A stretch of DNA of 64,000 bases. It comes from an uncultured Planctomycetales bacterium. Its GTDB lineage: Bacteria > Omnitrophota > Gorgyraeia > Gygaellales > JAHJCI01. Positions 1 through 24,775 of this stretch are shown here, in pieces (position 1 is the stretch's first letter; every line of letters starts with the position of its first letter). Location of the stretch: NCBI GenBank assembly GCA_964592485.1, contig CAZQEY010000003.1, positions 12,218-76,217 of the forward strand, in the 5' to 3' direction. The position numbers and the translations under genes were made by a program. The notes beneath the pieces were generated by a model that worked only from the letters and a program-made list of their open reading frames with translations, ran no database searches and was not told where the DNA came from.

Positions 1-3000
1 GAGGAATGCGAGCAATTAGAGAAAGAATTTAAGGGATTTGAAGAAAAGTCCGGCGACTCGCGAAAAATTGAGATGGAATTTAGGGATGGCAATATAATTG
101 AGACTTCCAAATCCAGATATCATCTGTTAGAAAAGTTAACCGAAACCGAGAAATCCGTAGTCAATCAGATTTCTATGGAGATTAAAGGAATCAAGACTGA
201 GAGAGAAAAAGGAAAAATCTCCAGATCTTTAGGTGTATTTAGGGCTTCTCCCCCGATTCGTATTGTGCGTATTTTAAAGGCCTTAAGGATTCATCCCGGA
301 CAGAGGTTTCTTGATTTGGGTAGCGGCAATGGCATTGTTGTCTTTTTGGCATCGATATTATGTGGTGTCAGGGGAGTGGGTATTGAGGGGAACCCATATT
401 TATTTAATAAGAGTCGGCTTGCGCAGGAGAGATTTGAAAATGAAGGTACGCTTAGACACGGAGAGACAGAATTTATTTTGGGAGATTTCCTTAAAGAGGA
501 CTGGGACAGTTACGATATTATTTTCTATTATTCCTTTGGCAGCCATCAATCAACTGAGATTGAAGAGAAGGTTTTGAAGGAAGCCAAGATAGGTGCAAGG
601 TTTGTTGTCCTTGGTTCGCGGAGGTTTGCCTGGAAAAACTACAATAGATACGAGGATTTTAGTAGATTGATTAATTCCAAAGAATTTTCTTTCCAAACCG
701 AACCAGACCTTGGTGCCTGGATATTTACACGCCTGAATAAGAACGAAGGTAGCGACTTACAGGAGGTTAAGGAAACACAAAAATTAAAGGAAGCCCTTAG
801 TCGAGATTACAAAGCTATCGCCATTGACTTTGATGGGACAATCTACGATGCAAAAATGTCTAAGGAAGAGTTTGAGGAATTACTCGAAGTATTGGTGGAT
901 ATCTTAAAATCGGGCAAAAATCTTGCAATTGTTACTAGCGGTCGACCGGAATACGTAGAGGAACTTTTGGTTTCTAAGTTAAGGAGTCATCCACGGGTAA
1001 CAAAAGAAAACCTTAATCAAATCGATATTTATCATTCAGGAGGAGCCTCCGGATATAATGCAGCTACGGAGAAAGTGCATTATGAAAAAGAATTTCCTGA
1101 TGCATTGCGGCAAGAAGCTGCTCGCTTGTTTAGCGGTAATCCACATTTAACATGCGATGAGGCAGAGTGGAAATCTTATTTTAAGCAACCGAAATATTCT
1201 GACACCCTCGCTTTAGATGCTGATTCTCACCTCAGTTTCACTCTATATAAGATTACCTTAATTCCTAAAGATAAAGGTTTAATAGCGCAGTACCAAAAGA
1301 TATTAAAAGAGCTCGTTACTAAATACGGTCTTAATTTAAACGTAAAGGCAACAAGTATCGCAGTAGAAATTATTCCTAAAGGAGTGGGCAAGATGCTAGC
1401 CGTTGCTGATCTGATGAGGCGACTGAAGGTTGAGTCTAGCCAGATTGCTAAGATTGGTGACCGGGGTGACCCAGAAGGAAACGACTATGAGTTTCTAAAG
1501 GAAGAAGGTAGTTTCTCGGTGGATCAGTACGATCCAGCCAATCCCAATCAGATTTGTATACCCTTGATAAATGGATTACGGGGTCCTACGGCAACGTTAT
1601 GGCTACTTAGACGATTGGCAATAAATAATACATTAGCATCTAAGCAACCAGGCCTTGGTCCAGGCACTTGGGATAGTATTGTAATGCCCAGCGACCTTAT
1701 TGAAGTTCAAGTTTATGTAGATGATGAAGGCAGGGTTTTTGTTGAATATGATGGCCAGAGGCTTGAAGTGGCAAGAGTAGATAAGCCAAATGAGATATTT
1801 GGAATGAGTATCAGGAATTGGTTGAAGGAGAAAGGACTCCGCGCTGATTACGATGCTTTTACTGATGAAGAAAAAGGCAGAAAATTTAGCATCGGTAATG
1901 CACTACGCAGAAAAGCAAATAGAGGCCTGAGAAATCGAAACGGATTATATGAGGTAAGAGCAGAAATAGTGCGTTATATTAGTTGGGCAAAATCCGGGCC
2001 TCAGCCTACTTGGAGCAAGATGAATTCGGCGATGTATGTCGGTATGCCTTTAAGTAATCTAATCTATTGGTATGCCGAAGAACAAGTAGCTATGTTAAAG
2101 TTATTCGGCAAAAAGGCACTCCCAATAACTGACCACAAGAGAATGGCTTTCATTGATTGGGTTCAAGGATTGAGCTTCTGGGATTTACCCATCTGGCCAG
2201 TAACCGAATCAGGCCAAATTGATACGGGTTTAATAAAATGGTTCAATGTGCCCAAGATGCGTGCCCCGCCTGAATATTTCAAAGCAAAGAAAATCACCTT
2301 ACGAGAGTTCATTGATAAAAAACCGCAAGCGCAAGGGGTCGGCAGGTCAAATGATTCAACCAAAGGTTCTCCCGCCGATTGCCTTAATACTTTGTATAAC
2401 AATAAGAACTTTAAGGAAAATCCTGTCAGTGTAAATGAATTAGTCTCCCAAAGAGCCTATTCCCAAAGAGCCTATTCTGAAACCACCATCCGCGCAGAAT
2501 TAAGCAGTCTTATCGCCATAGGTCTGGTAGAGGTAGACAAAACTCAAAAGCCATACCGTTACTACTTAAGCGATATCTTAAAAAGAGCACCGCCTGAGAT
2601 AATTAAAGAAATCTGTGATTTACCTGAACTAAACCTCTATCAAATCCCCTCCCAAGAAATTCCTCAACTCAAAAATAAATTAACAGAAATATTAGAACCC
2701 AGCGAATTAGTATCGTTGAAGAGAAGAGTATTTAAGGATAAGGCTTTATCAGGTGAAATAGAAAGGATATTCGGTTCATACGATAATTTTGCTTTGGCTT
2801 TATTTAATCCTCAGGAGTTCCTTGAGAAGCACAAATCAGAAAGTGCCTTATTAGCAGAGTTAAGTCAATTCTTAAGCAGGTTATTGGTTAACAACGAGGT
2901 ATTGGGAGAGATTCCTGTATGCGAATTTCCCCTTGCAAGGGCCTATGTTGAGAGATTATTCGCTGCTACGGGATTAGTCCGAGGAAATTTAGATGAGCTT

Positions 3001-6000
3001 CTTTCAAACAGAGCTTTATATAAAGAAAACAGAGAAAATAACCTTGAGGCAATAGCAGATGTTTACGGGATAGATATGTGCCTCGTTACATACTTAGATA
3101 TAAGATATAGCGGCGTAACTATTATTGGAGAAAATGCCGGATTGGAGTTTGTAGTGGATGGGAAATATAGAACAGGCCGTTTTGTTCTAGGCGACAATAT
3201 TTACCTATTCACAAAACAGGTATTTTTAGGAGAATCCCCCTATGCATACAGCAAGGAGACGGGAAAGATATATTATTACGGGCAAGAACTGCCCTATAAA
3301 GTAACCCCCGTAGAGCAAAAAGCAGGCACATGGAGAAGTCCGACAACCGGCGCCAAGCATTGGTATTTTAAAATTAAATACTGGGAGAATGAAGCAGACA
3401 CTATAGATGAGGAGCAGTTAACCGATTATAGCTCGCTGACCTTAAATTTTAGAGACTTCTGTCTTAATATGTGTCCTTTCTGCTGGCGGGCATATAGAGA
3501 AGAACTGCGGGCTTTTGGAAAAGAACTGATGAGGCAAAAAAATATTACAGTTGACCAAGGTATAGATATGCTTAAGAAAGCCCATGGAAAGAATGTGCTT
3601 ACAAAAGTCAAAGAAATATCGGTTGTCCAAGCCGGATTCGTTAAAGAAGAAGAGGAGTTAGACTATTTAGAAGAATTAATTATTAAATTAAGGAAAGAGG
3701 GATTTAAGGGTAGAATAATGGTTTCTACAAGCTTCGTTAGAAATCCCAACGCATATGCCAGACTTAAGGATTTAGGTTACGATATGAGCGAGTATAATTT
3801 TCCCTTAGAAGCATTTACAAATAGAGAAACCGTTCTAAGCAGAAGAAAGGCTGCGCCTTTTAAGAAGGTATTGCGAACTTTAATTATAGCAAAGCAACAT
3901 TATAGAACCGTCAGGGTATGGCTTCTGGCAGGATTAGCGGATAATCTTAGAGATTACGAAAGATTTTTTGCAATCTTATCTAAGAACAAGATAGATGCGC
4001 AAATTGGTATGTATTTTCCAATGCTTCCAAGACAAATCGGACTTCTGTCAAACGATATGGTTCGCGATCAAGAAAATAACGGACATATTCGATTTTTGTT
4101 AGATGTAGTTCGGTTAGCTAATAGATATAGTATCGCAAGGCCGGAGAGCAGCAGAAATAATGCTATCTGGCCGGCGTATATGGACAGATTTATTTATCAG
4201 GATAGCATACTTTTGACTAAAAATGAAGTTTCATTCGGGAGAAAAGGTATTTTAACTCTAAAGAGATTTATTAAAAACGGAGATTTTATTAATAAAGATA
4301 GTTTACTTGCTCCGCTTCGCCGCGAGGTAGAAAAGCAAGGGAGGATACTGTTAGGTTCGATAGAAGGAAGACAGATTTATGCTTATGTGGGCAAAGAGTT
4401 CAAGGGAAGCTTAGTTGATATGATTCAGGACAGATTTGACGAGAAATATGGATGGATATTTGCTGCTTATTTAGTTGAGGCAAAAACAGGCAAAAGAGGA
4501 GAGATTCCTATTCGTATGTTTAGAATAGAACCTGATAAGCCAAATTATTTTGAGATTACAGACCCCACTGAAAAAAGGATGATTACTGAAGAGGGTGAAA
4601 TAGTTATAAGAAAGGACAAACTCGATAATTCCGGCAGCTTGAATAAGGGTAAACTTCCTCATCCTAAATTTTATCAATATCCTAATGCGGAAGTGGAATA
4701 CAAGGCTTTGGTTGTTGATGGAGAAGAAATTATCTTAGAGGTAAGAATATTCTGGAAGGGTGAAATTATCATTAAAAAACTTTCTACAGTAAGAGATAGC
4801 AAGACAAGAAAGTTGCTATTTTCTTTTATTAAGAATTTCCACAAATTCCATATTAAACAGCATAAAGACATAATCATCCGGAGACAACTGGATAAGCGTG
4901 CAAGATTGGATATTTTGGGTCAGATGCCTTGGACAGGTTTACCTAAAGGTCTTAATCTTGATTATGCTTGGGTAGATGTAAAAATTGAAGATGCCGGGAA
5001 GATAGTTGATGTGATGTTTATTGAGGATTCCCAAGGAAGGTCAGTGCTTAATATTAATGGAGAGCCTTTTAAGATAGTTATCGGTGAAAATCTTCAAGAA
5101 CAGTTATCTCGCATAGCGCCGCGTAAAGAAAGAAGAATCGGCGTATTTGATGCTAAAACAGATAAATTGATTGCTTCCTATGAGGAGATGAGTCCGGAGG
5201 AGTTAGCTTTGATTACTGAAGAGCAATACCTAATAATTAGATTAGGCAAGCGGGGAAGGCTGGCTATCGGTGGTAAAGACTGGGGTGATTTTCATCTATT
5301 TCCTGGTGCAAAGGTCAGGCTCATTTGTTCTGAAGGCAAGGTAAAGGTTGTTAAATTTATTGCTGATAGAGAAGGAAAACCGATTCTGGATAAACAAGGT
5401 AAAGCCTTAGAGATTAAGATAGGTGAAGATGTTTTGAAGCAATTGAGAGAGAAGCTACCTTATTTTCAAGTGCGCAGCACAAAAGAGCTTTTAAGCGCGG
5501 ATAGGGTTTATGCGTTGATTGAAATGCTTCTTAATCCAGAGATTGGCACAGAGACGAAAAAACATATCCATTCTCTTCTTAAGAAAGCAGCCGAAGATGA
5601 AAGATATGTTGATGAGTTTCAAAGCCTCCTTGAAGAACCAGAGAAAGTTTCGAAGGAAAAAGTTGCCGATACTGTTATTGTATTTTTGGATACGAAGGTA
5701 GGTAGAGGTTTAATATCTACGATAGAAGCAACCAACCTAAGGAGATTTGCTAAAGATGAGAGCGGGGTTTTAGAGGCGATTAAGATATATCTTAGCAGTG
5801 ACATGAGTGATGAGGCGACAAAGATAAAGATTAGGTTGTTTGGTGCTGCTCGCGAGTTTCCTCAAGAGATAAGTGATACTATAGAAAAGATAAGGTTACA
5901 AAAAGATGGCAAGCAAGTTATTAGAAAATTGGAAAGGAGCGCTGGAGGTGGAGTATTCTTTAATTTAATTAAAAATGGTTTAAGCCTAAAGGGTATCATC

Positions 6001-9000
6001 AATAACAATCGCACAAATTCAATTATGCTTTATTCGGCTATTCTTCCCCCACAATTGGCTTCGTGGATAAATAAGAGACTTCTGCCACTACTTAGAAATG
6101 CTGCCTTAACAGGAATTAAGTTTTTAAACTCCATTTTAGGCGAAAGAGAAAAGATTATAAAAGAGGGATCCGATACTGGCGAGCTTATGAATATTATTTC
6201 TCAAACAAAGGGACAGTTCAAACTTGCCCAGCGAGTATTAAACCTTATGGATATAGGGATTGTTACGGATTCTTCATTATTAGTTACTCAATTAATGGAG
6301 GCATTTTCTAAAGAATATGATTTGCCGGATACTGTAAAGTTATTATTCTCATCCCCATCTTTTATCTATAATTACTTTAGCAGATTATCTGAAGAAGAAT
6401 TTTATCCAAAATCAAAGGAGTTTTCCCCAAAGGACACAGCCTTGATAGTTGTAGATATTCAAAAAGATTTCTGCGAAGACAGGGAAGGCTTCGCTTACGC
6501 TAATCGTCAAAAAGCTAAAGCAAGGGATGATGTTTCCGCAATCCAATATATGATAAATAATAATCTTCTGCCTTTAATTGAAATGGCACGAAAAGTCAAT
6601 ATGCACACTCTCTACATTCAAGCAGATTATCGCCAGAGGCAATTTCCTGATATGCCCAAGCTATGCCTCAAAGGTACTGAAGGTTGGGAATTTTATAAAC
6701 TCTCACCGCAAGGAGAAAAAGAAGCAGTCTTTTCTAAGTCTACATATGACCTCTTCAGCAACCCACAGGTAATGAAATATCTTAAGCGGCATAATATAAG
6801 GAATATTTTAATTTCTGGTTTAACTACCGATACCTGTGTAAGAACATCGGCTATTAGTCCTTTAGCTAAAACCTTTAAGGTATATGTAATAGGTGATTGT
6901 GTTGTTACTGCAGGCTATAAGCTCTTAACTAAGCATCTACCAACTTTAGAATATTTTAAGGAGGCTACCTCTATCCCCAGACTTATTTTCTTGCCGAATA
7001 TTTCATTTTACACCTCATCTCGAAGCGGAAGCTGCGCGTCAGGTAAAATAAAAGGGATAATCGCCGAAGAGGTGAAAAAATTAAATGATGCAGGTCTTAG
7101 ATATGGTAATGAAGTAACCGAAGCGCTTTTAAAATTAGCAGAAGATTGGAATCTGGATAAGTTAAAGGAGGCACTTGAAGAGTCAAGAAGATATTCCGAA
7201 CAGAGAAGTCCGGCTCTTTTGGCAATGGAGTTACAAACGATTTCATCTCTGGCTCAATTAATAGAAAATAAAATTAAGCACTCCGAATCTGCCTCTACCT
7301 TAGATAATATCCTCCAAGATAATGAAGCAGATTGCTTAGGATATACACAACTTTTATGTATATTAGGGAAAGCTGTTGGCTTTAAAGTCAGTCCTGTAGA
7401 GATAAAAAATTTACTCCCATATTTCTCTGACCAAGCTATGTTGCATGTGTGTTGTCTATTTGAATTGTCAAATGGACAGAAAGTGATGGTAGATTTGGGA
7501 GTCGAGCCTACAATAATTAGCAGCGCCTTTGCAATGGATGAAGAATACGAACTCATTGATGGGACTGATTATTATGAGATAAGAAAGGAAAATAATCCTT
7601 TTAGGTTATATAGGAGAATTCGATTTTTGGGTTATAAAGGATTGGTATCAATACTTTACACTAATTTAGGGCTTGGCTTTGTTGATGAAGGAGAACTTTC
7701 TTTGGCGATAGGGTCTTACGATAAGGCAATCGACTTGGACTCCAGGAATGCCAGGGCATATTATAGTAGGGCTGACGCTAATGTTTCCTTGGGGAATGTA
7801 ATACTGGCAGCTTCAGATTTTGAAGAAGCAGTTAGATTGGACCCACGGGACGAGATGACCCATTGTAATTTGGGTAATATTAAACTTGCAGGTGGACAAT
7901 TAGGGGAAGCCAAGGCTAAATTTGACGAAGCCATCAATTTAAAGCCTGATTTTGCCTTGGCTTATTGGCTTCGCGGGAAAGTCCTTGAACAATTAGGAGA
8001 TGTAAGGAGAGCAAAGAAAGATAGGAATAGAGCTTTAAAGTTAGATTCTTCGCTATCTTCAAAAATTCAACCGCCTATTATTTCTAATGAAGTTTATATG
8101 AAAACCATCTATCTTCTCACTCATCCTTTTTATATCCTCCCTTCAGATATGATGGGAAAGTGGAAGAGATTTGTCGATTGGGTAGCCGAAGACCAAAAAG
8201 GTTGCTTAATCTTTGTTGCCCAGAATCAAGCTCCTTTTAAAACCTCCGTTTTAGAAACTGAACTAGCAAATTATGCCTCGGATAAATTAGGAAAAAGATT
8301 CATCTTAGTAAGAGAATTTAGCGAGCAACTAAGCAAGGAGATTAAGGCTATTGGTAACTTCAATCCCAAAGAAGTAAGAATTAAAAGCATTGGTCAATTG
8401 ACCAATATTTGCGTTAGAATTTATACTCGCATTTTACAGGAAAAATTAAGGATTCCTACGGAAAATGTCGAGATATTAAGGGAGATTCCTCAAGAGGTAG
8501 AGACAGCTGAAGGGCAGACGCTATCTTCTGAACAAGAAGCAACGCCAGAGATTATAAAGAAGTCAGCGTTAATGAAAATAAAGAAGTTTATGGTTCTACC
8601 TGGCATTCGCACCTTCATAAAATATCAGTTGTATGTTTTACTGCCTCTTATAGGATTAGACCTGCTGTCTAAATTACTTATTCAGCATTTTGTTCCGGAT
8701 ATCATGACGCTTGCTCCCGGCGCTCAGTTGGACTTAGGTCTGTATAATTACCCCAGTTTAGGACCGTTTTATTTCTTCCCTATTTATCATACACAGCCGG
8801 GTATTCTTGAGAGTATTTTTGGACCTCAAGCCTATTTTAGCTCGCCACTCTTGCTTATCCCTGTATTTGCTCTTTATATCTATGTCCAAGTGCGTTGGTT
8901 ACATATTTGCTTCCAGGATTTCCTGAAGAATCAGAATCACAGATTTAGATTATCATACGCTTTGCCGTCTGTACTTATAGCTGGCGTGTTGGGCAATATG

Positions 9001-12000
9001 GTCAGCCCATTAATTACGCAGGGCAAGAGATTGGACTTTATCGGAATAGGGCCGAGTATTTCTCATTTAGCAGACTTTATGTTGTGGCTTGGCGTGATTA
9101 TAGGCATGGTTACGATTGTGCGTTATTTTATGGCTTCCAGGAGAGAGAAGAAAACACGCCGAGGCTCACTTGCAGAATGTTTGCGGGACCTTTCTCAAGC
9201 TAACAGGCCTTTAACCAGCGCTGAATTACAAGAAAGAAGAGGCGTAAGAAAGGAGACTGGAAAATTCTTTCACAGAAGTGTATTTAACAAGGAATTAGAA
9301 GGTCTTATGAAGCTAGGTTTGGTAGGAATAGGAAAGGACAAGATAACAGGAAAGCCAAATTATTATCTAACCGAAGTTTTAAGAAGGGCTCCGCCAAAAA
9401 CTAGAAAGAAAATCATAGAAAGACTCATCAGAGAAATACCCGCACTTAACCTTTCAGACCTCTCTCGAATCTCTCCAGAAGAAATCGAGCAAATCAAAAA
9501 TAAAGTAGAAAAAATATTAAAACAAGAAACCAGCAGCCCGCGCTTAGAAGAAATAATCGACGCCATACCTGAGGGTAGTCCATTTTCTATTGTCTACGAA
9601 GGGGGTAAATCTGAAATTTCTATGATTGACCTGCCCAGCTGGTCAGGGAACGAAGATTTTCTAAGTCAAGTTGAAAAAGGTTCATCTGCCTTGGGCAGAA
9701 GAGACATTGGTGTTTATGCGAGTTATTTTGTGAAAGTTTTCGAAAGAGTAACAGGCAGGAATTTAAACACAATCATCGGCAAAGAGGATATGCTCATAAT
9801 CGGTCCAGGCAATAGCCTCAAAGAGGCTTTATACTTCATACAAGGATTCCCGTCAGTAAGAAAGGTGGTTATCGTTGACTGGTACAAACAAAACATAAGG
9901 GATATCTTTAAAGAATTATCCCATCAGTCAGAAGAAATTAGAGAAAAAATAGAGTTATATTGCCTCGATATACGAAAAACCCCTTTTAAAAACGGTCACT
10001 TCAGACTTGTCTTTAGCTGCAATGCTCTTATGGATGACCTGCTTTCTCCTGAGGCACTAAAAGAGGCTTGGGGTGAGATTCACCGGGTGTTAAAGCCTCA
10101 GGGCATCTTTCTGGGAATGGCAACGCCAATTGAATTTATAGAGGATAATTTCGAATATATCCCTAAATACTATCGCCCAGGAGTTAATCTGGCTATAAAG
10201 AAGGGTGAGAGGCAAGAACAAGGGCCAAGAGGTTATGTAGTGGTTTTATATCAACAGAGATTTGGAGATAGAATCATAAATGATGTTAAAGCTGAGATTT
10301 CAGCGCTTCGCCCAGACTTCCTCTGCCTGCCCGAGTATTACTTTATTCCCAGATTAGTCCGTTTTGTTAACCCTGCTGAAGTGGAGAGGTATTTAGAGAA
10401 GGCGGCTGACTTTTGCCTGAAGGAATACGAGAGATTGAGGTTGCTTTCTGCGGAGCTTTCCACAGTAATAATCGCAGGCAGTTTAATAGAAAAGGCCGAA
10501 GAGGGATTCTATAATACCTGCTATATTCTTAACAGAGGCGTTGAGGTTGGCAAGCACCGTAAGGTGAATCTTGATGAAACCGAGATAAAGTATGGGTTAC
10601 TTCCTGGACAAGAGTATTCAGTTTTTGAGATAGAAGGACTAAGGATAGCAGTTTTGTTGTGTAAAGATGTATTAGACCCAGAAGCGCTGAAAGAGTTGGA
10701 GAAGAAGAACCCAGATTTGATTTTCTTTCCTTTTGTTTCACCCGATTGTAAGAATAGCTTCGATTATTTATCAACCGGCAGGGCATTTTTAAAGGCAATA
10801 AAGAAAAATGGTTGGTACGTGATAAAGGTCGGTGGAGTAGGAAGTTTGCTAGGGGAAGAGAGGCGAGGCAGAAGTCGGGTATTTTCTCAAAAGGGAATTT
10901 TGCTCAAAGCGGAAGATGAACAAAGAGATGAGATTATATCTTTTGAAATTGATATAGCAAGAAAGCCCCCGCATCAAATGCCAGAAACTTCTGACCAGGA
11001 AAGAAATAAATTGCGCATTGCCATAGAGCACGAGCAAGCAGGTACAGCAGCTTTAGAGAAGGAAGGCTATGTTTATGCCATAGCCGCCTTCAGGCTAGCA
11101 TTAAACCATCTTCCCAAAGGCGAAGAATACGAAGTCCATAGGCGAAGGATTGAAGGACGAATCGAAGATGCTAAGAGATTGGCTAATTTGAAAAATCAAG
11201 AGAGTGTTCGGATGCGTGGTCACGATGGAAGATTACATTCGAGTCTAGGCCAGAACATATTTGGCATAGACAGGGCAAGGGTATCAGGAGTTAGGCAAGA
11301 GTTGAATAGTAGCCTATTGCCTTTTGACGAAAGGAGAGTGTGGCATTATAGCGGTGGTCAAGAGGCGCGCGAAAGATTGGAGTTAAAACAAAATCAAGCA
11401 AGAATAAGAAAGGGCGAGATTTGTAATTTATTAAATGATAAGCAAGCAGAATTCTTCAAGTCATTTAAACAGAAATTCCCTGATTATCGCAAGAGATGTG
11501 TGGCTGCTTCACGCGCTGTGGGGCTAATGCTTTCTAAAGAATTCGCAATTCCTATTGAAGGGAATTCTTCTAATCGAATAGAAATAGAGGTTTGCCCTTA
11601 CCGAGATATAGGTAGTTATGATTTATATCATGAGGTGCTGGTTATATATCGTGATGGTAAGAAATGGCTATTTGTTTATCCGGTATTAGGTCTATTTCAT
11701 CCCGGCTTAGAGGGTCAAATAATCTGTGATGAATATCTACACCTAAGCGAATACGGTTTTTCTCATTATTCTCGCGCAGACTGGAGGCGAGGTTGGGATG
11801 AGAGAATAGAACAGATTGCTGATGAGGTATCAGGTATCAGGCCCCAGTTAGAGGGACTTTTAAACAACCCAGCTTCTAATACCAGAAATGAAGCTATAGA
11901 TGAGTTGTTACGTTCAAGAGAATATAAAGAAAAACAAAAAATATCGCTATTTTTAAACAGGGTTATGCAGGACGATAATGATTCAGTGCGACAAAAGGCA

Positions 12001-15000
12001 AAAACAGCTATTCTTACTCTTTGGCATATCATTGAAGCAAGGCAGGATAGTAACAGAGAGAGTCTCATCGCATTTTTTGAAGATATCAGCCAAGAGCTTA
12101 CGGAATTAGAATTTGAAAGCTTATTAGATATATTGGCAAGCTCCTCATTTACTAATCAAGGACGCTATGCTCTTAATCGCCTTTACCTAGATAGATTAAC
12201 AAGCACAAACCCTAAAGTTAAGATTGAAGTCGATGAGCGCATATTGGAAGCGGATAATATTGTTTTATACCTTGAAATTATCAAAAGGCAGCTTTCTCGG
12301 ATAAGTCAACCGGACAGTCTGAATTTAGAAATTGTATTCCTGAATAGCCAGGGCGCATTTAAAGACAGAGTGTTGGAAAGCGGGGTTGTTCTGCGTAGAT
12401 ATGGCGTTAATGGACCAAGGCAAATTTTGATTAATGTAGCTGCATTTAAACATGATGGTGCTTTTCTAGTTGATATCAAAGAACTTTTCGAGAAAGAGAT
12501 GGTAGGGATAGTTAATCAATGCATTAAAGATGAAGGCTGGGATTTTGAGTTCGCTGATACAGGAAGAACAACTTTAGAAGACTTTGTTCCTTTAAATGAA
12601 AGTCTTATCTGGAATATTAGTAACCTCTATTGGCAGTTGATAGGAAAGGATTCTTTTGCGGATTCATCCGACGAATTTTTCCCTGACTTTTCGATGCATT
12701 TAAAGAAGGTATATAGAGGGTTATATGTTGATAGAGCATTTGCTGATGCATGTGCCCAGAAACTATTTAATTACCTTTGCGAACTGGAGAAGTCAAATAA
12801 TTTACCAGAAGACATTATCATTCAAGAATGGGGAGCAGGGGAAGGGACATTTGCCGGCATGTTCTTAGATGCTATAAAACAGTTGAGTGAGAAAAAAGTA
12901 GAACAAAAAGGTGGAATAAACTTCTACGAAAGATTAACTTACGTGATGGGCGATATATCTACTAAGATGTTAGAAGATATTCGTGATAGAGAGTGGTATC
13001 CAGAACATAAAGACAGGATAGAATTTTCGGTAATGGATGCAGCAAATCCGTCTAGTCGTTATCAGGGCAGGACGTTGTTGCTAATAAATAGCTATCTATA
13101 TTGTGTAATGCCAGCACGGGTAATTGCAAAGAAGGATGGCCGTTTTTATGAGATGTATGCAAGGACATATCTTAATAACGAAATTGTAATTAAAACTCAG
13201 AATGGAGAAAAGGTCTCAGCAGATGAATTTAAAGATATATTAATAAACAGAGATATTCAGAGGCTGTCAAACTTAGACCCTTATTTCTGGGGTGCACTAA
13301 ATTACCAAGAAACGTACAGAGAGATTAATCTTGGAGATTATGCTTGGGGCAATTGTGTGGCAGAAGTGACAAAGGATAGAGAGGATTGCCGTATTCCGGT
13401 TAATGTTCAGGCATTGGAAAGCTTAGAGAAATCTCTGGACTTATTAGATAGAGAAAGAGGCAGGATTTGGATATTCGAGTTGACTCTGTCAGAAAATATG
13501 CTGAAGAGCCCGCTTACCGGGCCGATGAACCTAGGACCTACGCTTGCTATACCTGTAAATACATCCTCGTTGGAGTATGTAGTAAATAAGAAAAATGGGT
13601 GGGAACTTACAATTGCTCCATCAACAGCATTTTTGCAAGAGGAACGAGCCAAATTGTATACCTATATTGAGATAAAGCCGAATAATGGCAGAAGATATTT
13701 AGAGGGCTGGGATGGGAAAATAGAGATAAGTATTCCCCAGGATTGGGATCACATGGTAGCCAGTACTCTCGGTAGATTTAAACCATTATTCATAAAGGAG
13801 GCAATAGAGGATGGTTTAACCAGAGAAAGCGGAAGATTTCTGACAGAGGTCTTTGTTAAGATGGGAATAGAGCCTAAACAGGTTGAGTTTATAAAGCTCT
13901 CATTAGCCCAGGAAGGCCCTTCATATGGAGTATTCCGTGCCGAAGTAAAACTTAATAACGGAGAGGTTAGGTGTTTTGGGCTGAATGTAGTCTTAAATGA
14001 CGGTCTAAATAAAGATTTAGAATTAGATTACCAGAATTTAGCCTTTTTATATGAGTTGCAGAATGGAATCGGATTAAAATTTGTTTCTCAACCTTTCTCT
14101 ATGGGGAGAGGGCGATTCAAGATTAAGTCAGGCGAAACAATAGAGATGGCCTTCTTTGCCATTGAGTGGTTAAGTGATTTTATGGAATTACATAAATATA
14201 GATATATCAATGAAGGAAAATTCTACCTATTATCAAATTATATTCGAGGAAAAACAAATATATATGAGAAGTATCTTAATGAACAGGAATCCGCTTCCAT
14301 AAGAAAGAAAATAATTGCGCTATTTACATTAATCTTTGCCTCGACTTTTGAAGAGGATAAGGGCGGGTTGGTCATTAAAAGGTTTAATATAAACAACGGC
14401 GATATCATGGTTCGTGACCAAGGAGAAGGAAATTCTGATGTTTGCCTGGTTGCCGCACGTGAATTGATTAGATTGAATAACCCTAAGGAATTTATTGATT
14501 ATTTACTGGGATATGAAAATACAGAGTTTGTAGCAATAGACATACTGGAAGGGGGAAATGTAGTAGTAAGTAGGACTGAGAGATTCAAGCTTTATGAGGA
14601 TGTATCAGAGATAAGAGAAGGTATAATTGATGGATTAGTCAGGCTCTATGGAGAAAAGGACGGTCAGGATTTAGCTCAAGCGTGGTTTGATGATTATTCC
14701 GGCGATAAATTTGGTTTAAGTTTAGGCAGAAGCAGAGAACGGGTAGCCCATTACAGTGATGGAGAGAAGGCGCGGCAGAATAATGAATCGAAGCCGATAT
14801 TTATTGGAGAATTTGAAAAATATATTCAGATGGAACCAGATAAATTTAGAAAGGTAATTTCGCAGTTACAGTCAGAGCCATTGAATATTCAACAAGAAGA
14901 AGAGGTTAGTCGATTTTGCAATGCACTTATTGAATTGATGATGTTAAAGACGCAGTATCGGCAAGATTTAAGAGAAAATAAAGAGTCCCGGCTCTGCGAA

Positions 15001-18000
15001 ACCTATAATGAACAAAAGGCAAACGAGGTATTACTTAAATATGGATTTGATGTACGGATTAATACCGAGTCTCACCCACTGCCTAAAGATATTAGTGACA
15101 TTAATCCATTACTTAGGGAACAAATGCCTTCATATCATAAATACCTTGTTGTTAAAATTGCTGGTTATGACTTTGTTATTGATTTAACCGCCGACCAATT
15201 TGAGCCGATTAAAAAAGATGTATACCGCAATTTGGGAGTAGTGGTCATTCCATACAGTATTGTTCTAAATAATTCTGAGAGATTCTGGATGTATCTTGGT
15301 GGGGTGCATAATCATGTAGAATGGAATCAAGGAAAGGATTTCTCACTTCCTGACTCAGCAGAGGCACACTTTAACAAAAATAGTAGAGGAAAGAAGCAAA
15401 ATAAATTTAGTTTGACAAAACCAGTTGGAATAGATTCCTTGAGAGAAAGATTAAGAAAAAGATTGGAGAACGATTCGCTATACTTATTGACCGGCGATAT
15501 GGCAGAATGGGGAAGAGAAGAATTCGAAAAAGTCGAGAAGATGAGCAAAGAAGAAATTCTTAACGAGGCTACCCGGCTAGTAAGAGAGATGGGGTACCTT
15601 GACTTTGATGCTTCTCAGATGCTTAAGCATAAAGCGGGCGTTCAATTACTATGGGATGATATCCTTGCTCAATCTATATTCGCGCTGGATTCCTTGGGTG
15701 AATTATACCAGAGGGAAGAGGCAGGGGTGTCTGATGAAACAAGGGGAAAAATAGAAACAACCACTAAACGGTCAGTATATAGACATGAAATCTTAATCAG
15801 GGCCTGGAATATTGTTATTGAGTCGCAAGATACTAATATATCTAAAGGTGAAGGGGTGCTTAGTTTAGAGCTCCATGATGAGGTTAATGAGGTTGTTAGA
15901 ACAGCTTGGAATGAGAAAGAAGGCAGAATTGCTTGGGGAGAGAGTACTGATTGGCCAAAGGCAGAGGAGGATGGGATTGCTAAGGCAAATGGGGCTGTTG
16001 CAATTTTAAAGGAGAAAGATATAAAAGTAAAACTGCCTAATAAACTGGGTAAGCTAAAATTAGCAGAAGAAATAGAGACAGAAGAGGCAGGGAAGAAAAT
16101 CAATGTTATTTTTATTATAACACCTGACCAATCTGCTGCGCTTATCTTGAAGGGGCCCTATACCTATCAAGTCTCCCACGCAGGAGTGAGGTACAGTTCC
16201 ATCTACATCGCTCAGCCATTTTATAAAGAACTTACTGAGAATGAGCTCGCTGGTCTCATCGGCCGCGAAATAATAGAGCAATCTGCCAAGAGAATTGCCC
16301 GAGAAAAAGGCATTCCTTGGAGTGATTCTCTTGCCAAGGCAGTAGAGAAAGCGGCTCAAAAAGCGGAGATTAAACTTTGTGGCAGGAGTGTCAATAGTAG
16401 AGAAAGAAGTCGAATAGACGATAAGATAGATACAATAGTCCGCTTGCCTTCACTTAGGGTATTGGCTGAGAAGGCCAAGATGCAGGAACCAGAGAAGATT
16501 CAACCTATTCTATTTATGGCTCTAAGGGATAGGTCTCCTCTGTTGCGTGATGAGGCAAGACGGATTTTAACTGAGATATTTGGTATGGAGGAGAAAGACC
16601 TCAGGTTAGTAGAATACAGGAAATTGTTAAGACCTATGGACCTCAATATCTACTTTAATCTTAGATATAGCGATGGTGGCAGCGGTCTTAAGGCAGGAAA
16701 ATATTTTAAAGAACCCAAGTTTAAAGGACTGGCATTAGTTATTCCTATGGGAGGCCGTAAGCCCCTCAGGCCAGATACTGGAGAACGCGCTATTTTAGTA
16801 GCAGAGAAGGAAGTAACGATAGGTGGGCGCAGGCTAAAGGCAAGGGTTTATAATTTTGTTTACCGATATAGTGATTCGGTAATTAATACGCCTTTCATTC
16901 CTCCGCAGGGGTCTCACCTGTGGGACGCCGAGCATGCGACAGTATTCACTGATGAGAACGAACAAATCGTGAAGGTAGAAACTGGTTATCACAACAGTTT
17001 CTACCTCTATTATCCAAAGGCTCTCCAGTTCGATGCTCAGGGCAGACTCTTGGTCTTTAGTGCCGCGGGTTCTCAGGGCTCGGTAGCAAATACGCGGGAT
17101 TTTATTTTTGACCTTGATAGCGCCAGAAGTAACTTCCGGAACCCCCAAGTTTTCTGCAGCGAAGATTATGCAGTGAGTTTAGGAGAAATCGACTTCTCTC
17201 TGGCTTCTGATGATGGGAGGCATTTTACCAATACCGATATTCTCCTGCCGCCATTCAAAGAGTATGTCCTTAATCCGGAATCGATAAAACCCACGGCTGA
17301 ATTTAAGAGACTAAGGAGAGCGACGATAAAAAAATGGATTCTCATTTTGCGTGCTTCTCTGGATTCCCTGCTGCGTCCATTAAGGTCCCTTGCGAAAAAG
17401 TTTTCTGGGCAGGGGGCTGAGGGTGAGAGAAAGCTCCAGGAGCAAGTCCTGAAGGCATTAAGAAAGGAGAGCAAAAAGGCAACAGGAACAGAAATGTTAA
17501 GCCTGTCAGAAATTGCAAGCAGGGCAGGTATCTTGGGTTACAAGCCTGTTGAGCGAGTTAGGGAGGCTGTAAGGGCCCTTATGTCTGAAGGGTTGGTTAT
17601 AGAGGTAAAGGTAGGCGGAAAGAAGGGATATTATCTCAAAGGAGCTAAGAAGCTCATTCCCTTAAAAGGCTCAATAGCAGAGTATATATTGCTTTTGTGG
17701 AAGTTCAGAGACGAGCTGAAAGGTAGGGCAATCTTGCAATCTGAGCGAGAGAATAATATTATTGGCGATAAGGTAATAAGTTATGAGACCGCCAAACAAC
17801 TAAAAAGAGCCTTGCAGTTATTGGATTTGCTTGATGAGAAGAATAAAATCACCGCTAAACTCCTGAGCATTACCGAAGAACAAATAAGACAAATCCCCAG
17901 TATCGATGAATTAAATAGGTCGCCTCTAAGAATAATCAACTTAAAAAAGCATAAAAACTCATTTGATAAACTTACCCAGCGTATTGATGAGCTATTAGGA

Positions 18001-21000
18001 GCGGATAGCAATCTTTCAGAAACAGCAGAATCAGATGCTCAATTAAAGAAGATTGCCGAGGCAAAACCCTTTTATATCTTTTATAAAGATGGCAGGTTCC
18101 ATCTCGAAAAGTTAAATCTGCCAAGCTGGAGGCGCGATAAAGATTATATAGAACAAGGGGAAGACCTTTTAGGTCGCCCTTTTGGCTTAAGAGGCATTGC
18201 CGATTTCACTAACGCATTTTTTAAGGAAAATGTAGAGCCATTTTTAAAAGAACATACTCTTCCTCCCTTGGGGGATTATTTAAAAGGAGAGGATGTGTTA
18301 ATCCTTGGCAGCGGCGCCAATATATACGAAGTCCTTTACTTTGCAGAGAACTTCCCGATGATAAGGAAAATAGTGGTTTGCGACTGGAGTAAAAGAGGTA
18401 TTGCAGGCCTCTATCACCTTTTATCTGGGTATCCGGCGGAATTCAAGGAGAAGGTCGAACTTTATTGCATAGATATTAAGAATACACCCTTTCCTTCGGG
18501 AAGGTTTAATCTAGCCTTCGCCGATAATACCCTTAGTCGTGATTTTCAATCAGCGGAAGCACGCAGCGAGATGATTAGAGAGATCTCTAGGATATTGAAG
18601 CCCGGGGCCATATTCTCCCCATGGGCAGTTTTACCTCCGTATAATATTGAAGCCTTATGTCAGGAAAATGGCATTGACCTTGTTAAGGTAGATGAAAAAA
18701 GCGGAGATTTTGTTGGTATAAAGGCAGATATGAATATGAATAGGGCTGCGAAGAATGTCTCCCGCAAATGGCCGCAGAGGGTTCCGGAGAAAAGGAGAAG
18801 TAAATATGTTAACCAGCCTGCTTATGAATATAGAGTGGTAGATGGCTCTAGATTGCAAAGACCAATACAAGATGAATCAATAAATCTGTCTCAGAAAGGG
18901 CTTAGAATAAGAGAAGACATTTTAAAAAGATTCTTAGAGTTAATAACCAGAATTGCTTATCCTAATGCTCCTCCGTTTACCTTAAGCATTGACCCCTCAA
19001 TTCCTACCTATGCTCAAACAGAAATAGAAAATAGAAAGGTTATTCTACACCCTGCGTGGTTTGAATTACCCACTTTCAAACAATTCATAATTCTCTATCA
19101 TGAAATAATCAGCCATCTTAAAAAACAGATATCTTCAGAATTCCTCGCCCTCATCCATACATTCTTAAGCTTGATTCCTTTTGGGATACTCAGGTTAGCA
19201 ATCCAGATGATGAGCGTGAGGAAAAAGGAAGAAGTTACCGATTATGAATTGACTAAGATTACTGCAAGAGCAGATGAGGCCGCAAAGTTTATTATCGACC
19301 ATAATTTTATGAGTCTTAATAAGGTAAGATATCTTCTGGCAATAGGAGCAATGTTGCCAAAAAATAATCAAAAGAGAAGGTGTCTATATATTGCCTCGGG
19401 AGGAGATTACTCAACAAGTCAAATAGTATCCAAAGCTATAGAAACTATTTGTATAGATAGGCTTCCTTTTGAACCATCAGAAGGGTTATCTGAAAGAAAA
19501 TTAAATTCCTATAGAAAAGCATATCTGAAGAAAAGATATTATGGAAACTTTGCTTCTTCAAAACGAGGCGCCAGAAGTTCATTATTAAGAGAGATAGGAG
19601 CTAAGCAATATTTACTCTGGGAGCTCGAAATGATGGGCGCAAGAGAAATTGTAGTAGTATCTGATACTGATACTAAGATAAATAGAATCAGTTTCCTGCT
19701 TCCCGGAGAATCAATAGAAAAAAGCATTATTTATCTTGAGAAGGACTTCTGCGACATAGAGGCAAATCCGCAGACATTAATTGCCCTTATTCAGAAAGGA
19801 TTGGATTCCTGCATTTTGAAAGCCTCTGACGGATTACGCATATCCGGTCCAATTGCCGATATGATAGTTACTCACATGAATCCAGGAGGAATGTTCTTCT
19901 TGGATAGAGCTACTTTTGACCATCCTAATCTTGAAGAAATAGACGAGAGAAGAATGAAGGAGATTAGGTATTTTGAAGGTATGGGTTATGCCTTTGGGTA
20001 CCATAAAATTTCCTTAAAAGTTGCTAATCGCTCTAAGGATGCGGACAGCAGTCCTTCAGAGGTAGGAGAGTCAGATGCTCAATTAAAGAAGATTCCCGAG
20101 GCAAAATCCTTTGGCGGGATATCACCGCTAAGACAAAGACAGTCAGAAGTTGCGCAGCAGAGCAAGAACGATTCAAAGCGTAACTTCTGGAGAATAGTTA
20201 AGAAATTACTGCCTTTCATTCTGTTGCTCCCGATTATGCCTGGTTTAATGGTAAATACTTCAGGCGCAGAAGAATCTAATTCAGTTCTAAAAGACAGTTC
20301 TGAACTGGCAAGATCAGCAGACAAGCTAGCCAAATTGCTTTATGAGTTAACCGGTATAGAAAAGGCCATCTGGCAAAGGGCATTGAGAAAATTTACCATT
20401 GAAGAGATTACTCTGTTAAGCAGGAGGATTAATTCTCACGGCCTATTTAATTCTTTATTAATCCTTTTCTGTTTGGATAATTATATCAATGAAGAAAAAT
20501 ATGAAACAGAGGAAAATGAATCTGTAGGGGCTTTGGTGCTGGTGTTAAATTATTTCACAGAAAAGGATATTGAAAAATTTATTCTTGAGAAAGAGCATAG
20601 AGAAGATTTTGAACAGGTTAAGCGCTTATATATATGGGATCAATGGGAAAGGATAATAAGCGGAAGATACAGTGAACAATATACCTCTGATGAAATTGCT
20701 AGGGAGAGTGGAGTAAGGCAGGATATTATCAAGCGTTATAGAGATTTAATTCGAAGGCATATTTTGCGGATGCAGAAATTTGATTGGGCTGTTGGCTGCA
20801 GGGAACGCATTCGCGCCGAGGGCAGACTTAGAGGATGGAATGAAGAGCAACTGCGAACAGAATTAGGGATTATCCATAAGGGGGTTACCGGCTGGACAGG
20901 CAGAAGGATTTGGCCTGTTTACGTTAAAAGAGCTGCTGAGATATTTGGGAAAGAAGTCAGCTTCTTAATGTACGGGGAAGCAAAATCAGTTTTATTCAAG

Positions 21001-24000
21001 GGATTACCCTTTAATAAGCGGTTTGAGCTATTAAGATACGAAAAGGGTTTAACCCGCGAGGAGTTAGCAGGACAACTTGAGATTGCTACTGATAAAGTAA
21101 TCTCTTGGGAAAGCGCAAAAAGCAAGCTTAGCCTTGAAAGCATACGCTTATTATCAGAGAAATTCAATTTAGAAGTCAGCGAGCTTATCTATGGTTTAAA
21201 GCGAGCCGAGGCATTAAAGATATTTCCACTTGGCAAGCGCATCCAGCTGTTAAGGCTTGAGAAGGGATGGACCATAGAAGAGCTGGCAGTCAGATGCGGG
21301 GTTAGTCCCTCAACAGTGAATCGCTGGGAACGGGGGCCACGAGAGCCTCTTCCTGAAAATATACAGGCCCTAATAGGAGCTTTAGGGGATGAACTTTTTG
21401 GTAGAGAATTGAATAAATCTAAAAAGAGGAAGGAGGCTACTTTACCGCAAAGAAGAGACGGGTTGAATCGAAAAAATACAAAGAAAAGGATAATCCTTAC
21501 CAACATAAAGATAGGAGTTGTCAAAGAGATTATTGAGGGTGAAAAGAGGGTGGCTCTTACGCCAAGAGAAGTAGAGATTCTGGTAGGAGAGGGTTTTGAT
21601 GTTACTGTTGAGGCTGGAGCAGGTCAGGCTTGCGATTTTTCCGATGAGGACTATTTAAAGGCCGGCGCTAAGATAGGGACAAAAGATGATGTATGGAGCA
21701 AGGATTTAATTGTTAAGGTAAAGGAACCGCAAGAAGAAGAGATGCAGTTTATCAAGAATGGCCAGATTATATTTGCTTTCTTGCATCTGGCAGCGCCGGT
21801 AAACAGAATCTTAACCGAGACTTTCATGAAAAAGGGAGCAACTGCAGTCGCCTTTGAGACTATAGTAAAAGAAGAGAAAGCGCCGATTTTGGCAGAGATG
21901 AGCAAGATTGCTGGGCCCCTGGCAGCAGAGCAAGGGCAGTTTTATTCCAAGAAGGAAAAGAGCAAATTCATAATCTTAGGCGGCGGGGTAGTGGGTCAGA
22001 ATGCAGCTGAACGAGCCAATCAATTAGGTAATGAGGTAATTATCATTGAACTGGATGCGCAAAGAAGAAAGGAACTCAGGAGCTATTTCCGGTCAAAAAG
22101 GCTCAATATTATTGTTAAGGAATCTTGGGCTGATGCGAAGAAAATTGCGCAAGACTTATTCAGGGACTTACAGAATGCAGATGTGATTATCGGAGCGGTT
22201 TATAATAAACAAGGTTCTCAGGCGCCGATTTTAATTGATGAGGAACTTCTTTCAAGGCTAGGTGGAAGTAAGGTAATCGTTGATGTCTCGGTGGACCAGG
22301 GCGGGAATATTTATGGCTCAAGGCCAACCACTCTTGAGGAGCCGACCTTTATCGATAAATATGGAAATATACGCTTCTGTGTCCGTGATATACCATCTTT
22401 GAAGGCAAAAGAGGCTTCGATTGGTTTAGCGGCAGCTGTTCTTCCTTATGTTAAGGCTCTGGCAGCCACAGGATTAGAGGAGGCAGTTAAGGATTATCCT
22501 GAATTAACCGAGGGGATTAACATTCTTCAAGGCAAACTACTTAACAGGGCTGTTGCCAAAGCACATAATTTTAGCGAGCAACTAAATTTGGATCTTGAGG
22601 GGTTTGGGCTTGACTTGCGGATAAAGATTGGCACAAGCCAGGATTTAAGATGGGATGCCAAGTTAGATTTAATCAGAGATTATCAGCACCTGGAAAATCT
22701 TATCCTGGACCCGGCAAAAAGGATTTTCTGGGTAGATGACCATCAGTTTTCAGCCCTTGGTGCCTGGCTGGCGCTGAGATTGGGTTGGATTAAAAAGAAA
22801 AGCAAGGCGATTATTATTGATTCGCATTGGGATGTTAAGAATCCAGACTTTAAACCAAAGAAAGATGCCTCATTAGAATACTTAAGCGATTATGTAAAAC
22901 GGTTAAATATCAATAATTGGCTGATGCCTTTAGTTTATGACGGAGTAATTGATGAGCGAGAGATTTATATAATTGATAACAGGGTTTCGGAAGAGCCACT
23001 AACCCAGACTTTTAAATATTTTGATAAGGATATCAATATTCACATGTTTAATCTCGCTAATTTCCCAATGGAATTATTAAAAGACACACCGCAGGATCAA
23101 TTGATGTTATTGATTGACGCTGATAAAAATACACCTGATTATTACCTGGACCAACTTTCCCCCTTGGTAGATTCACCGGTTGAATTTGCTTCTAAAATGA
23201 GGCCCTTTATGGAAAAGGCTGGTTTTATGAGTCTATCCCTAAGTCCTTATTGGATTAACCCCGTAGATGCCTTGAATTTCGCCTATGCTTTAGATGGAAG
23301 AGAAGACTTATTGCTTGAGGATGAGGCACGCTTGAAAGAATATAAACGCATTGGTTACAGCCCTCATATAAAGATGGATTGGGCTACCCATGGGATGTTG
23401 GAACAACCCGATGCGTTTCGGCTAATTGTTTCCCGGTTCGGTATAGGTTCACTTTCTAGATATGGATTGAGGAGATTGAAAAAGCTTTCCAGGGTCAAAG
23501 GGATAGGGAGGATACCGCGATTCGAACTATGGGCATACTTAGATTGGTATACGCCGGAGGAGATAGGCGTGGTACTTAAGAACTATGGACCCGAAGGGCT
23601 AATTAAATATTTTACTGCCCAGGATAAGAAGTCGTATCAAGTCTGGGAAAACCCATTTTATAACCCGGAAGATTTCACTCTTGTTGCTCAACCAGGTGTG
23701 GCATCGTCATTCCCCGCCCTTGCCAGATTGGTGAGACAATATCGAGCAACCAAGGCACTCCAACCAGAGGAGATTAGCCCGGAGCAGATTATCTCTGGAC
23801 ATAGGGGTAGGCAATATCGGGTATTTTCTAAGCTTAGAGATGAATCAGAGAGGGGGGCTAACAGTGATATTTATTTGGCCGTGGATTTAAAAACCAACAG
23901 AACAGTTATCGTGAAGGAAACAAAACCGAAGTTTAAGGGTAGAGGGATTCGTAGTGAGCGCTGGATAGCGGATGAACGGCGAGCCCTGCATAGGAATAGG

Positions 24001-24552: not shown

Positions 24553-24583
24553 ACAGATGATAGTGATAGACGATAGCCATAGG

Positions 24584-24618
24584 CAGAGACGTTTTCCGGT
24601 TCAAACTGGAAACTGCAC
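24584..24618 (+). promoter_or_regulatory. Hairpin motif X1 of a 6-copy family (CAGAGACG-TTTTCC-loop-GGAAA-CTG)
   Basis: Stem TTTCC/GGAAA closed by CAG...CTG, 32 nt after giant-gene stop; same architecture as leader motifs A, C, D. Confidence 0.4.
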
Positions 24619-24632
24619 CTTCAAGCACAGCG

Positions 24633-24672
24633 CAGAGGCAGTTTCCCGATTGGGGTGGAAAGCGTCTGTAAA
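24633..24672 (+). promoter_or_regulatory. Leader motif A: CAGAGGCAGTTTCCCGATTGGGGTGGAAAGCGTCTGTAAAGAG, 20 nt upstream of membrane-protein gene
   Basis: Near-identical copy at 25334-25375 (motif C) and related copy at 25908-25950 (D); stem changes compensate (TTTCC/GGAAA; TTTCCCG/CGGGAAA; UUUCC/GGGAG with wobble) suggesting RNA hairpin in 5'UTR. Confidence 0.45.
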
Positions 24673-24775
24673 GAGAAAGGAGTGAGGCAAGATGAAAGTA
24701 ATGGATTCTAAAATACAAATTGGACCAATAATCCTTGGTATAAAAGCGTCTGTAAGGAGAAAGAAACGAGGTAAG

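Follow-up and report, generated by a model that had tools for sequence, protein, structure and literature searches.

A giant gene of mosaic composition

The sequence analysed here is a 64-kb stretch of contig CAZQEY010000003.1 (the window, to which nucleotide positions refer unless a relative is named). It begins with a giant open reading frame (ORF), 73..24552 on the forward (+) strand, which encodes 8,159 amino acids (aa), contains no internal stop and closes with a single terminal stop; every feature described within it lies on the same (+) strand. This giant ORF is a true gene of giant size and lies in a chromosomal region; the bacterium is uncultured and most likely a member of the Omnitrophota. 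Its product – as described by the ORF list, Pfam domains and a hydropathy scan – is a membrane-anchored multi-enzyme protein, the transmembrane (TM) segments being predicted. In composition it is a mosaic: about 85% is a string of unrelated domains and about 15% consists of paralogous modules; a repeat array it is not.

At least 14 distinct Pfam domain types occur along the protein, the highest copy numbers being two to three (methyltransferase, HTH_3 and TPR). They include an N-terminal DOT1-like methyltransferase, a Cof-type HAD phosphatase, radical SAM and isochorismatase domains; a weak transglutaminase-like region, TPRs, a four-TM signal peptidase II and a CN-hydrolase; and HEAT repeats, a Methyltransf_28 region, an HExxH segment, AlaDH/PNT, UPF0489 and a kinase-like C-terminus. 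Hydropathy predicts six TM segments, four at aa 2852-3020 followed by single segments at aa 6357-6382 and aa 6708-6730; the same scan found no hydrophobic segment at the N-terminus. The signal peptidase II domain (Peptidase_A8; 8641..9117; E=7.4e-6, 26.7 bits against a cut-off of 25), with its four TM segments, is situated mid-protein.

A first-pass annotation had described the ORF as built from recently duplicated modules. We compared the ORF with itself by blastn (word size 7) and by blastp of overlapping 200-aa chunks against each other, and expressed the significance of Smith-Waterman alignments as z against shuffled sequences. The resulting self dot plot carries off-diagonal signal at both nucleotide and amino acid level, and all three similarities that the annotation had reported are real. 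The description as 'built from' such modules is not borne out: at E<1e-3, internal matches involve about 1,190-1,300 of the 8,159 residues, or 15-16%.

The sole substantial relative of the giant ORF is found on L082, a locus from JGI contig Ga0315268_10001803: at 71-13216 it carries a second giant ORF, whose length is 4,381 aa or more. Four colinear blocks connect the two: aa 4547-4907 (56% identity), 5865-5960 (35%), 6403-6656 (59%) and 7516-7858 (55%). Between the shared blocks L082 carries unrelated modules, namely about nine MarR-type winged-helix domains in arrays (aa ~1270-1600 and 2110-2310), HEAT repeats, an HD domain and a further methyltransferase. The best-conserved blocks (55-59% to L082) occupy 13711-14793, 19279-20040 and 22618-23646; Pfam identifies UPF0489 within aa 7516-7858 and is otherwise uninformative. 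These three blocks may form the functional core of the giant protein. The single TM helices at aa 6357-6382 and aa 6708-6730 lie on either side of a block whose L082 counterpart has no TM helices beside it.

Module A, a winged helix with a helical connector

Two families of paralogous module account for the principal internal similarities. The first, module A, occurs in copies that we call c1, c2 and c3. Copy c1 (aa 764-876; 2362..2700), whose sequence includes KPYRYYLSDILKRAPPE...KNKLTEIL, and copy c2 (aa 3031-3150; 9163..9522), which lies directly downstream of the signal-peptidase-II domain and before a methyltransferase unit described below, are 33-37% identical. Self-blastp aligns aa 758-875 with aa 3024-3150 (nt 2344-2697 with 9142-9522) at 33% identity and E=4e-14; in Smith-Waterman alignment the pair scores 130, whereas 1000 shuffles average 28 and none reaches that value (z=19.9). 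The pairing of segments at ~2550-2700 and ~9350-9530 that the first-pass annotation had put forward is thus confirmed. At the nucleotide level a weak echo persists, 2633-2698 against 9458-9523, with 74% identity over 66 nt (self-blastn, E=8e-5).

A third copy had been placed at ~17600, on the strength of the segment GKKGYYLKGAKK (aa 5849-5860; nt 17617-17652). That identification does not hold, as this segment has no significant similarity to module A (z=2.0 to c2 and 0.8 to c1). It forms the end of a separate winged-helix-like segment (17485..17652) with weak RPA_C, Mnd1 and IclR HTH matches, and at the equivalent position L082 has MarR-type arrays with strong Pfam scores. A third copy does exist just downstream, in strongly diverged form: c3 (aa 5865-5973; 17665..17991), recognised from MAFFT alignments and from an hhalign comparison of a c1+c2 profile with a c3+L082 profile (P=8e-4). 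It shares the motifs KGS[LIP]A[ED][CYF], KIT.K at the base of the wing and I[TS].E[EQ]I.QIP in the connector, while a wing strand and the RAPP segment are deleted in the MAFFT alignment. Pairwise, c3 is not significantly similar to the other copies (z=2.0-2.4); its stretch is 35-40% identical to L082 7004-7360.

The fold of module A was predicted with AlphaFold2 from c2 (aa 3030-3165), using a three-sequence alignment; the model has a mean pLDDT of 80 and a pTM of 0.74. Helices at 4-12, 20-33 and 39-51, a bridge at 18-19 and a hairpin at 55-59/66-70, with connector helices after, give the order helix, short strand, helix, helix, beta-hairpin – the topology of a winged helix. The top Foldseek matches in the PDB are nearly all winged-helix regulators, mostly of the MarR family (among them ST1710, AdcR, MepR, SlyA and ZitR), with a best E of 2.6e-3 and TM-scores of 0.42-0.47. 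All Pfam winged-helix models stay under their cut-offs on module A (Penicillinase_R 16.6 bits against 22.6; PaaX weak). Module A would thus be MarR-like by fold only: it resembles MarR-family regulators in predicted fold and topology, but differs from them in sitting within a giant enzyme chain, in the conserved helical connector that follows it, and in matching no Pfam winged-helix model at cut-off.

Unit B, a beta-hairpin followed by a methyltransferase

The second family, unit B, consists of a beta-hairpin, an LPSW motif and a class I S-adenosylmethionine (SAM) methyltransferase. Its two copies follow module A copies c2 and c3 and share their names: unit B copy 1 (c2; aa 3160-3356; 9550..10140) has the hairpin sequence IPEGSPF, and unit B copy 2 (c3; aa 5993-6192; 18049..18648) has IAEAKPF. 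LPSW lies at nt 9637-9648 and nt 18115-18126. The copies are 39-40% identical, with blastp aligning aa 3201-3351 to aa 6027-6186 at 40% and E=7e-34, and the similarity extends over both parts of the unit (z=16.7 for the hairpin and LPSW part, z=52.5 for the methyltransferase core); the earlier report of an LPSW-methyltransferase repeat at two sites is therefore well founded.

Membership in the class I SAM methyltransferases is indicated in each copy by a Pfam model above its gathering score: for copy 1 Methyltransf_25 (39.1 bits against 27) and Methyltransf_11 (33.5 against 21.2), for copy 2 Methyltransf_11 (23.1 against 21.2), with Methyltransf_25 at 26.4 against 27. The alignment further shows SAM motif I (LIIGPGN in copy 1, LILGSGA in copy 2), the acidic motif-II residue (VIVDW, VVCDW) and a common LYC[LI]DI[RK].TPF. 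Because the glycine loop and the acidic SAM-site residues are kept, both copies are probably active methyltransferases. The modules differ in arrangement: c1 is an A alone, followed by the radical-SAM region, c2 is an A-B pair and c3 a degenerate A-B pair.

Additional copies of unit B were sought within the ORF. The stretch after module A copy 1 was ruled out as a degenerate unit B (z=0.7), and the Methyltransf_28 region (z=0.4) and aa 6430-6660 (z=0.6) were likewise rejected. For the DOT1-like domain the sole match (z=4.6) is a 25-residue local alignment, and we do not accept paralogy.

Relatives and the shuffling of modules

When 1.84 billion representatives were searched exhaustively by HMMER with a unit-B profile, only 70 proteins matched, and many of the best matches are 1,000-5,500 aa long. 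The ORFs of the three best relatives fill or run off whole contigs of metagenome-assembled genomes (MAGs); they are truncated giant ORFs. Unit B c2 is 47-48% identical to the relative P0001 and 39-40% identical to c3, while c3 and P0001 are 35-37% identical. A neighbour-joining (NJ) tree gives ((c2,P0001),c3), apart from the other 12 relatives included, which were chosen from the 70 matches. A scan with the unit-B alignment of contigs from GTDB r232 species representatives yielded no confirmed relative. A word-index search of a 5.8-billion-protein collection with segments of 361-920 aa (aa 5780-6700, 3024-3400 and 4547-4907) gave no match; for the giant ORF such negatives are unreliable, as the exhaustive HMMER search found relatives of 47-48% identity.

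Modules that are shared between giant ORFs do not keep the same neighbours. In the relative P0003 a block like aa 3758-3923 (51% identity) stands directly upstream of a unit B; in the giant ORF the order is unit B, CN-hydrolase and then the aa 3758-3923 block.

A junction patch present twice

The only extended similarity at the DNA level is a patch of 83 nt, which we call r. Patch r1 (aa 5974-6000; 17991..18072; ADSNLSETAESDAQLKKIAEAKPF) covers the end of the c3 connector and the first residues of unit B; patch r2 (aa 6654-6680; 20030..20112; ADSSPSEVGESDAQLKKIPEAKSF) has a TM helix after it and no methyltransferase. Self-blastn aligns the two at 84.3% identity over 83 columns (13 differences, E=2e-18), and the remaining flanks are unrelated. 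This upholds the ~85% identity that had been noted near 18001-18070 and 20040-20110, including the encoded peptide: both copies specify ESDAQLKKI[A/P]EAK in frame, 680 codons apart, with r2 2,040 nt downstream of r1. A pattern for the 39-nt core has exactly two matches in the window, and 100 shuffles give none. The residues that match r in c2, P0001 and P0002 read IPEG.PF, and the 'IPE' of r2 fits the unit-B consensus IPEG; r2 is a copy of the connector-to-unit-B junction without the unit.

Together with the weak 66-nt echo in module A, the r patch – 83 of 24,480 nt, or 0.3% – is all the self-similarity that the ORF retains as DNA, and Tandem Repeats Finder (TRF) detects only trivial repeats of about two copies inside it. 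Growth of the gene by duplication, which the first-pass annotation had read from the DNA-level repeat, is not supported by a patch of this size at a junction with unrelated flanks, which is not a module.

The repeats had also been thought to make the locus prone to assembly collapse or expansion. That the r1-r2 region is an assembly artefact – a chimera, or a collapsed or expanded repeat – is hardly credible. Nothing in the sequence itself points to it; what can be said in its favour is that the same organism is broken into contigs of 7-9 kb in short-read assemblies (Logan SRR14802574), and that no independent contig across r1-r2 was obtained. Against this, no direct repeat in the ORF is exact over more than the 24 nt of the core of r, and 24 nt is shorter than the k-mer and read lengths normal for assemblers. 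Moreover, the copies differ at 13 of 83 positions and have unique flanks, the frame stays open over 24.5 kb, and the blocks before, between and after r1 and r2 keep their order on an independent JGI contig, that of L082, with which all four blocks are colinear. A repeat of this kind poses no risk of collapse to a modern assembler.

The start of r2 coincides with the end of L082 homology (aa 6656/6657), and r1 starts 17 aa past the preceding shared block. Both patches thus mark, exactly or nearly, the 5' boundary of segments that are missing from L082, and each of these segments holds one TM helix. Because both copies edge segments without counterpart in this one related giant ORF, we interpret the patch as a rearrangement scar: an in-frame 83-nt copy of the connector-to-unit-B junction that would have arisen much later than the module duplications and would be the only younger event. 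It could have been left by a partial segmental duplication, most of the second copy having since been deleted or replaced, by a template switch, or by short-tract ectopic conversion. We do not take it as evidence of ongoing growth by duplication.

A different possibility is that r has been kept for a function, either as a short linear peptide motif at module junctions – a site processed by the protein's own peptidase-like domains, a docking helix or a hinge – or as a DNA or RNA element. The distribution of changes is suggestive in this respect, with one change in the 36 nt that encode the 12-residue core ESDAQLKKI.EAK and 12 in the 46 flanking nt. Both copies are at or near module boundaries, the protein has a signal-peptidase-II domain, a weak transglutaminase-like match and an HExxH motif, and other authors have suggested, though not shown, that giant proteins are cleaved. 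A second motif, HYS.G..AR, also lies at two module boundaries and is kept in L082. Yet r itself is missing at both equivalent junctions of L082, from the 70 related proteins and from all 82 loci fetched (profile and degenerate DNA pattern). Its changes, counted from the alignment, are three synonymous and seven non-synonymous, which speaks against strong selection on the peptide; the lack of synonymous changes in the core fits recent common descent (about 2.4 would be expected at the rate of the flanks; P ~0.09 by our estimate, not significant), and no promoter, start codon or convincing hairpin was seen in the sequence. We regard a retained function as decidedly unlikely.

The second junction motif, R.V.HYS.G..AR(ERLELK..Q.RIR), deserves separate mention. 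Its first copy (aa 3758; 11332..11409) is 73% identical over 26 aa to aa 479-504 of the L082 giant ORF; the second (aa 4893; 14737..14793; pairwise E=0.27) is at the end of an L082-conserved block. L082 has the motif once (1505-1582), closing the block homologous to aa 4547-4907, and its tail (ERLELK..Q.RIR) matches the other copy of the window, the first. It would be a long shot to propose that r and HYS.G..AR are functional cassette boundaries in Omnitrophota giant genes, serving as in-frame recombination or processing sites. If that were true, such junction motifs would be preferred in-frame sites for the swapping or deletion of modules, or cuts made by the protein's own peptidase-like domains. 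A crossover between r1 and r2 would delete exactly 680 codons, including one of the two C-terminal TM helices, and would, by prediction, move the last ~1,430 residues to the other side of the membrane.

Age and origin of the duplications

Taking the evidence together, we consider it probable that the locus is a genuine mosaic giant gene with ancient module duplications, and that the r patch is a rearrangement scar. The order of events and the mechanism we infer are as follows. The module duplications would be ancient, the copies having diverged to 33-40% protein identity and then recombined into differing arrangements. The duplication of unit B would have occurred inside the giant-gene lineage and before the host and P0001 genomes diverged, because c2 is closer to P0001 than to c3. 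As to the 'recent' duplication described at first, the term does not suit the modules, whose similarity in DNA is gone save for the 66-nt echo; it suits the 83-nt patch alone, which is comparatively recent.

The same observations could be accommodated if units A and B had been acquired independently and at different times, by recombination with other giant genes of the same or other genomes, all drawing on a common stock of modules. In P0001, P0003 and L082 the same modules are ordered differently and have different neighbours; unit B of c2 is nearer to P0001 than to that of c3; the slot that the giant ORF occupies, upstream of a GH94 gene, holds largely unrelated giant ORFs in 16 mostly Omnitrophota-labelled loci; and mobile-element flanks have been reported at giant loci. 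This proposal has to contend, however, with the tree, in which c2-B, P0001 and c3-B form one clade that excludes the other 12 relatives, and with the confinement of c1/c2-type module A to the giant ORF: the c1+c2 profile has no match in the 70 related proteins or in six-frame ORFs of 80 related loci (1.2 Mb), a search with a profile that failed to recover even copy c3. Independent acquisition is in our judgement unlikely, and duplication within the giant-gene lineage remains the reading that we prefer.

Several considerations weigh against that reading. The third copy of module A hangs on a P value of 8e-4 from two-sequence profiles together with a few motifs. The NJ tree was built from about 130-200 very divergent positions, with no bootstrap. 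Comparison draws on one partially colinear relative (L082) and three fragments, so that the polarity of gain and loss cannot be set, and 'intragenic' is not rigorously separable from 'between paralogous giant genes'. The scar view of r is itself an interpretation, beside which a functional role of the peptide or DNA stays in play with the low probability given above. Lastly, the taxonomic assignment comes from one neighbouring gene; marker genes are not its basis.

Comparison with known giant proteins

Giant genes are a described hallmark of the Omnitrophota; they include Archaeovorin- and dockerin-type genes, which frequently have carbohydrate-import systems close by (West-Roberts et al. 2023, bioRxiv 10.1101/2023.11.21.568195). 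Nielsen & Lui (2026, bioRxiv 10.64898/2026.06.07.730766) define a class of 'multi-enzyme metabolic clusters' among Omnitrophota long proteins. In their survey 46% of long proteins are TM-only, 80% of clusters at 30% identity and 80% coverage are singletons, and among the Pfam-positive long proteins of Omnitrophota 65% contain some Pfam more than once. Nucleotide tandems beyond small ones survive in few of them, and the authors explain the repeats by old duplications that have since diverged, and not by recent tandem expansion (bioRxiv 10.64898/2026.06.07.730766).

The giant ORF fits class 1 of Nielsen & Lui (TM-only) in every tested respect except the length threshold. Like the proteins of that class it is tiled by many distinct Pfams, none of which dominates; methyltransferase, HAD, radical SAM, signal peptidase II and HEAT/TPR scaffolding domains are common to both. 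It likewise has TM helices without a signal peptide (as judged by hydropathy) and a sequence that is near-unique in the databases, and it repeats Pfams at least twice while its nucleotide tandems are essentially dissolved (TRF; blastn matches of 83 and 66 nt). At 8,159 aa it falls below the 10,000-aa threshold of that catalogue, which is a survey cut-off and no biological boundary. It also differs in having AlaDH, isochorismatase, CN-hydrolase, XRE HTH and the lineage-specific winged-helix-connector module, which we did not find described there. Of the winged-helix-connector module and the junction patches we found no mention in either West-Roberts et al. (2023) or Nielsen & Lui (2026).

Archaeovorin-type genes resemble the giant ORF in their Omnitrophota host, in their methyltransferases, peptidase-like, HEAT, TPR, radical SAM, HAD and TM elements, and in an adjoining carbohydrate-import cluster (here GH94, CBM11 and an ABC sugar transporter). 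A SecA DEAD-like or preprotein-binding domain is present in most of them (West-Roberts et al. 2023, bioRxiv 10.1101/2023.11.21.568195). The giant ORF, in contrast, has no SecA-DEAD, glycosyltransferase, glycoside hydrolase or NUDIX domain (Pfam, E<=0.01, whole ORF) and no C39 or S8 peptidase near its N-terminus. It is also far shorter than the genes studied in that work, which exceed 90,000 bp (bioRxiv 10.1101/2023.11.21.568195).

The giant ORF is one further example, and not a new principle, of Omnitrophota giant genes as mosaics that gain, lose and re-order modules, with internal duplication as a minor and mostly ancient contributor. What it adds is two module families with coordinates (winged-helix-connector and hairpin-methyltransferase), which could help to segment giant proteins for structure prediction, together with short junction patches that may mark rearrangement breakpoints, and a position directly upstream of a GH94/sugar-ABC cluster that recurs in 16 loci with almost wholly different sequence.

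A further class that invites comparison is that of the polyvalent proteins of phages and conjugative elements, attributed to Iyer, Burroughs, Anand, de Souza and Aravind (2017), which reportedly are huge single polypeptides that string together methyltransferases, peptidases and other enzymes. The likeness lies in just this, one huge polypeptide with methyltransferase, peptidase and other enzymatic domains. The giant ORF differs in its metabolic and regulatory repertoire and in its setting amid chromosomal housekeeping genes, with no phage, conjugation or integrase genes in the 64-kb window. A phage or plasmid origin as a polyvalent protein was rejected, the window consisting mostly of co-oriented housekeeping and metabolic genes.

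Genomic neighbourhood and other repeats

All the larger ORFs of the window except one share the direction of the giant ORF. Downstream of it are genes for a GH94 phosphorylase, CBM11, an ABC sugar transporter, a GH2-like protein and LacI; for a class II ribonucleotide reductase, phosphoglycerate mutase, NAD synthase, an aminotransferase and glutamine synthetase; and for complex-I/[NiFe]-hydrogenase-like subunits. The best relatives of the GH94 gene (62-77% identity, with the same downstream order) are overwhelmingly from MAGs labelled Candidatus Omnitrophota, and on this evidence the host is most likely an Omnitrophota bacterium.

At 16 other GH94 loci, mostly labelled Omnitrophota (L005, L006, L009, L011-L013, L015-L017, L020, L035, L037, L040-L042 and L048), the flank upstream of the GH94 gene contains an ORF on the same strand that is 1,500 aa or longer and mostly runs past the end of the 10-kb flank. 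These upstream ORFs have almost no sequence in common with the giant ORF or with each other. The giant-ORF slot beside the GH94/CBM11/ABC sugar cluster is thus conserved in position and hypervariable in content, with rapid turnover.

Within the giant ORF several repeats had escaped the first-pass annotation: a tandem of XRE-type HTH domains, an unannotated domain in three copies, and the TPRs at aa 2527-2660 (self-comparison and Pfam). The XRE-type pair (aa 6955-7027 and 7028-7100; 20935..21372) is 40% identical (E=1.4e-8) and matches Pfam HTH_3 in two stretches (E=2.4e-19). The domain of ~110 aa, which belongs to no Pfam family and was found by self-blastp, occupies aa 1431-1541, 1573-1683 and 1691-1796 (4363..5460); copy 2 matches copy 3 at E=1.2e-5, and copy 1 matches copy 3 at E=0.005.

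Immediately after the giant ORF (24583-25860) are tandem paralogous small multi-TM genes, at 24692/24776-25264 and 25395-25832, which are 86% identical over 486 nt; neither has a Pfam match, and the public gene index contains no exact match to either. The divergence of the r patch (84% nucleotide identity) resembles that of this gene pair. In addition, an 84-nt tandem duplication (24659-24826, 88% matches) repeats the 5' end of the first small gene: its ribosome-binding region, its ATG and its first 28 codons.

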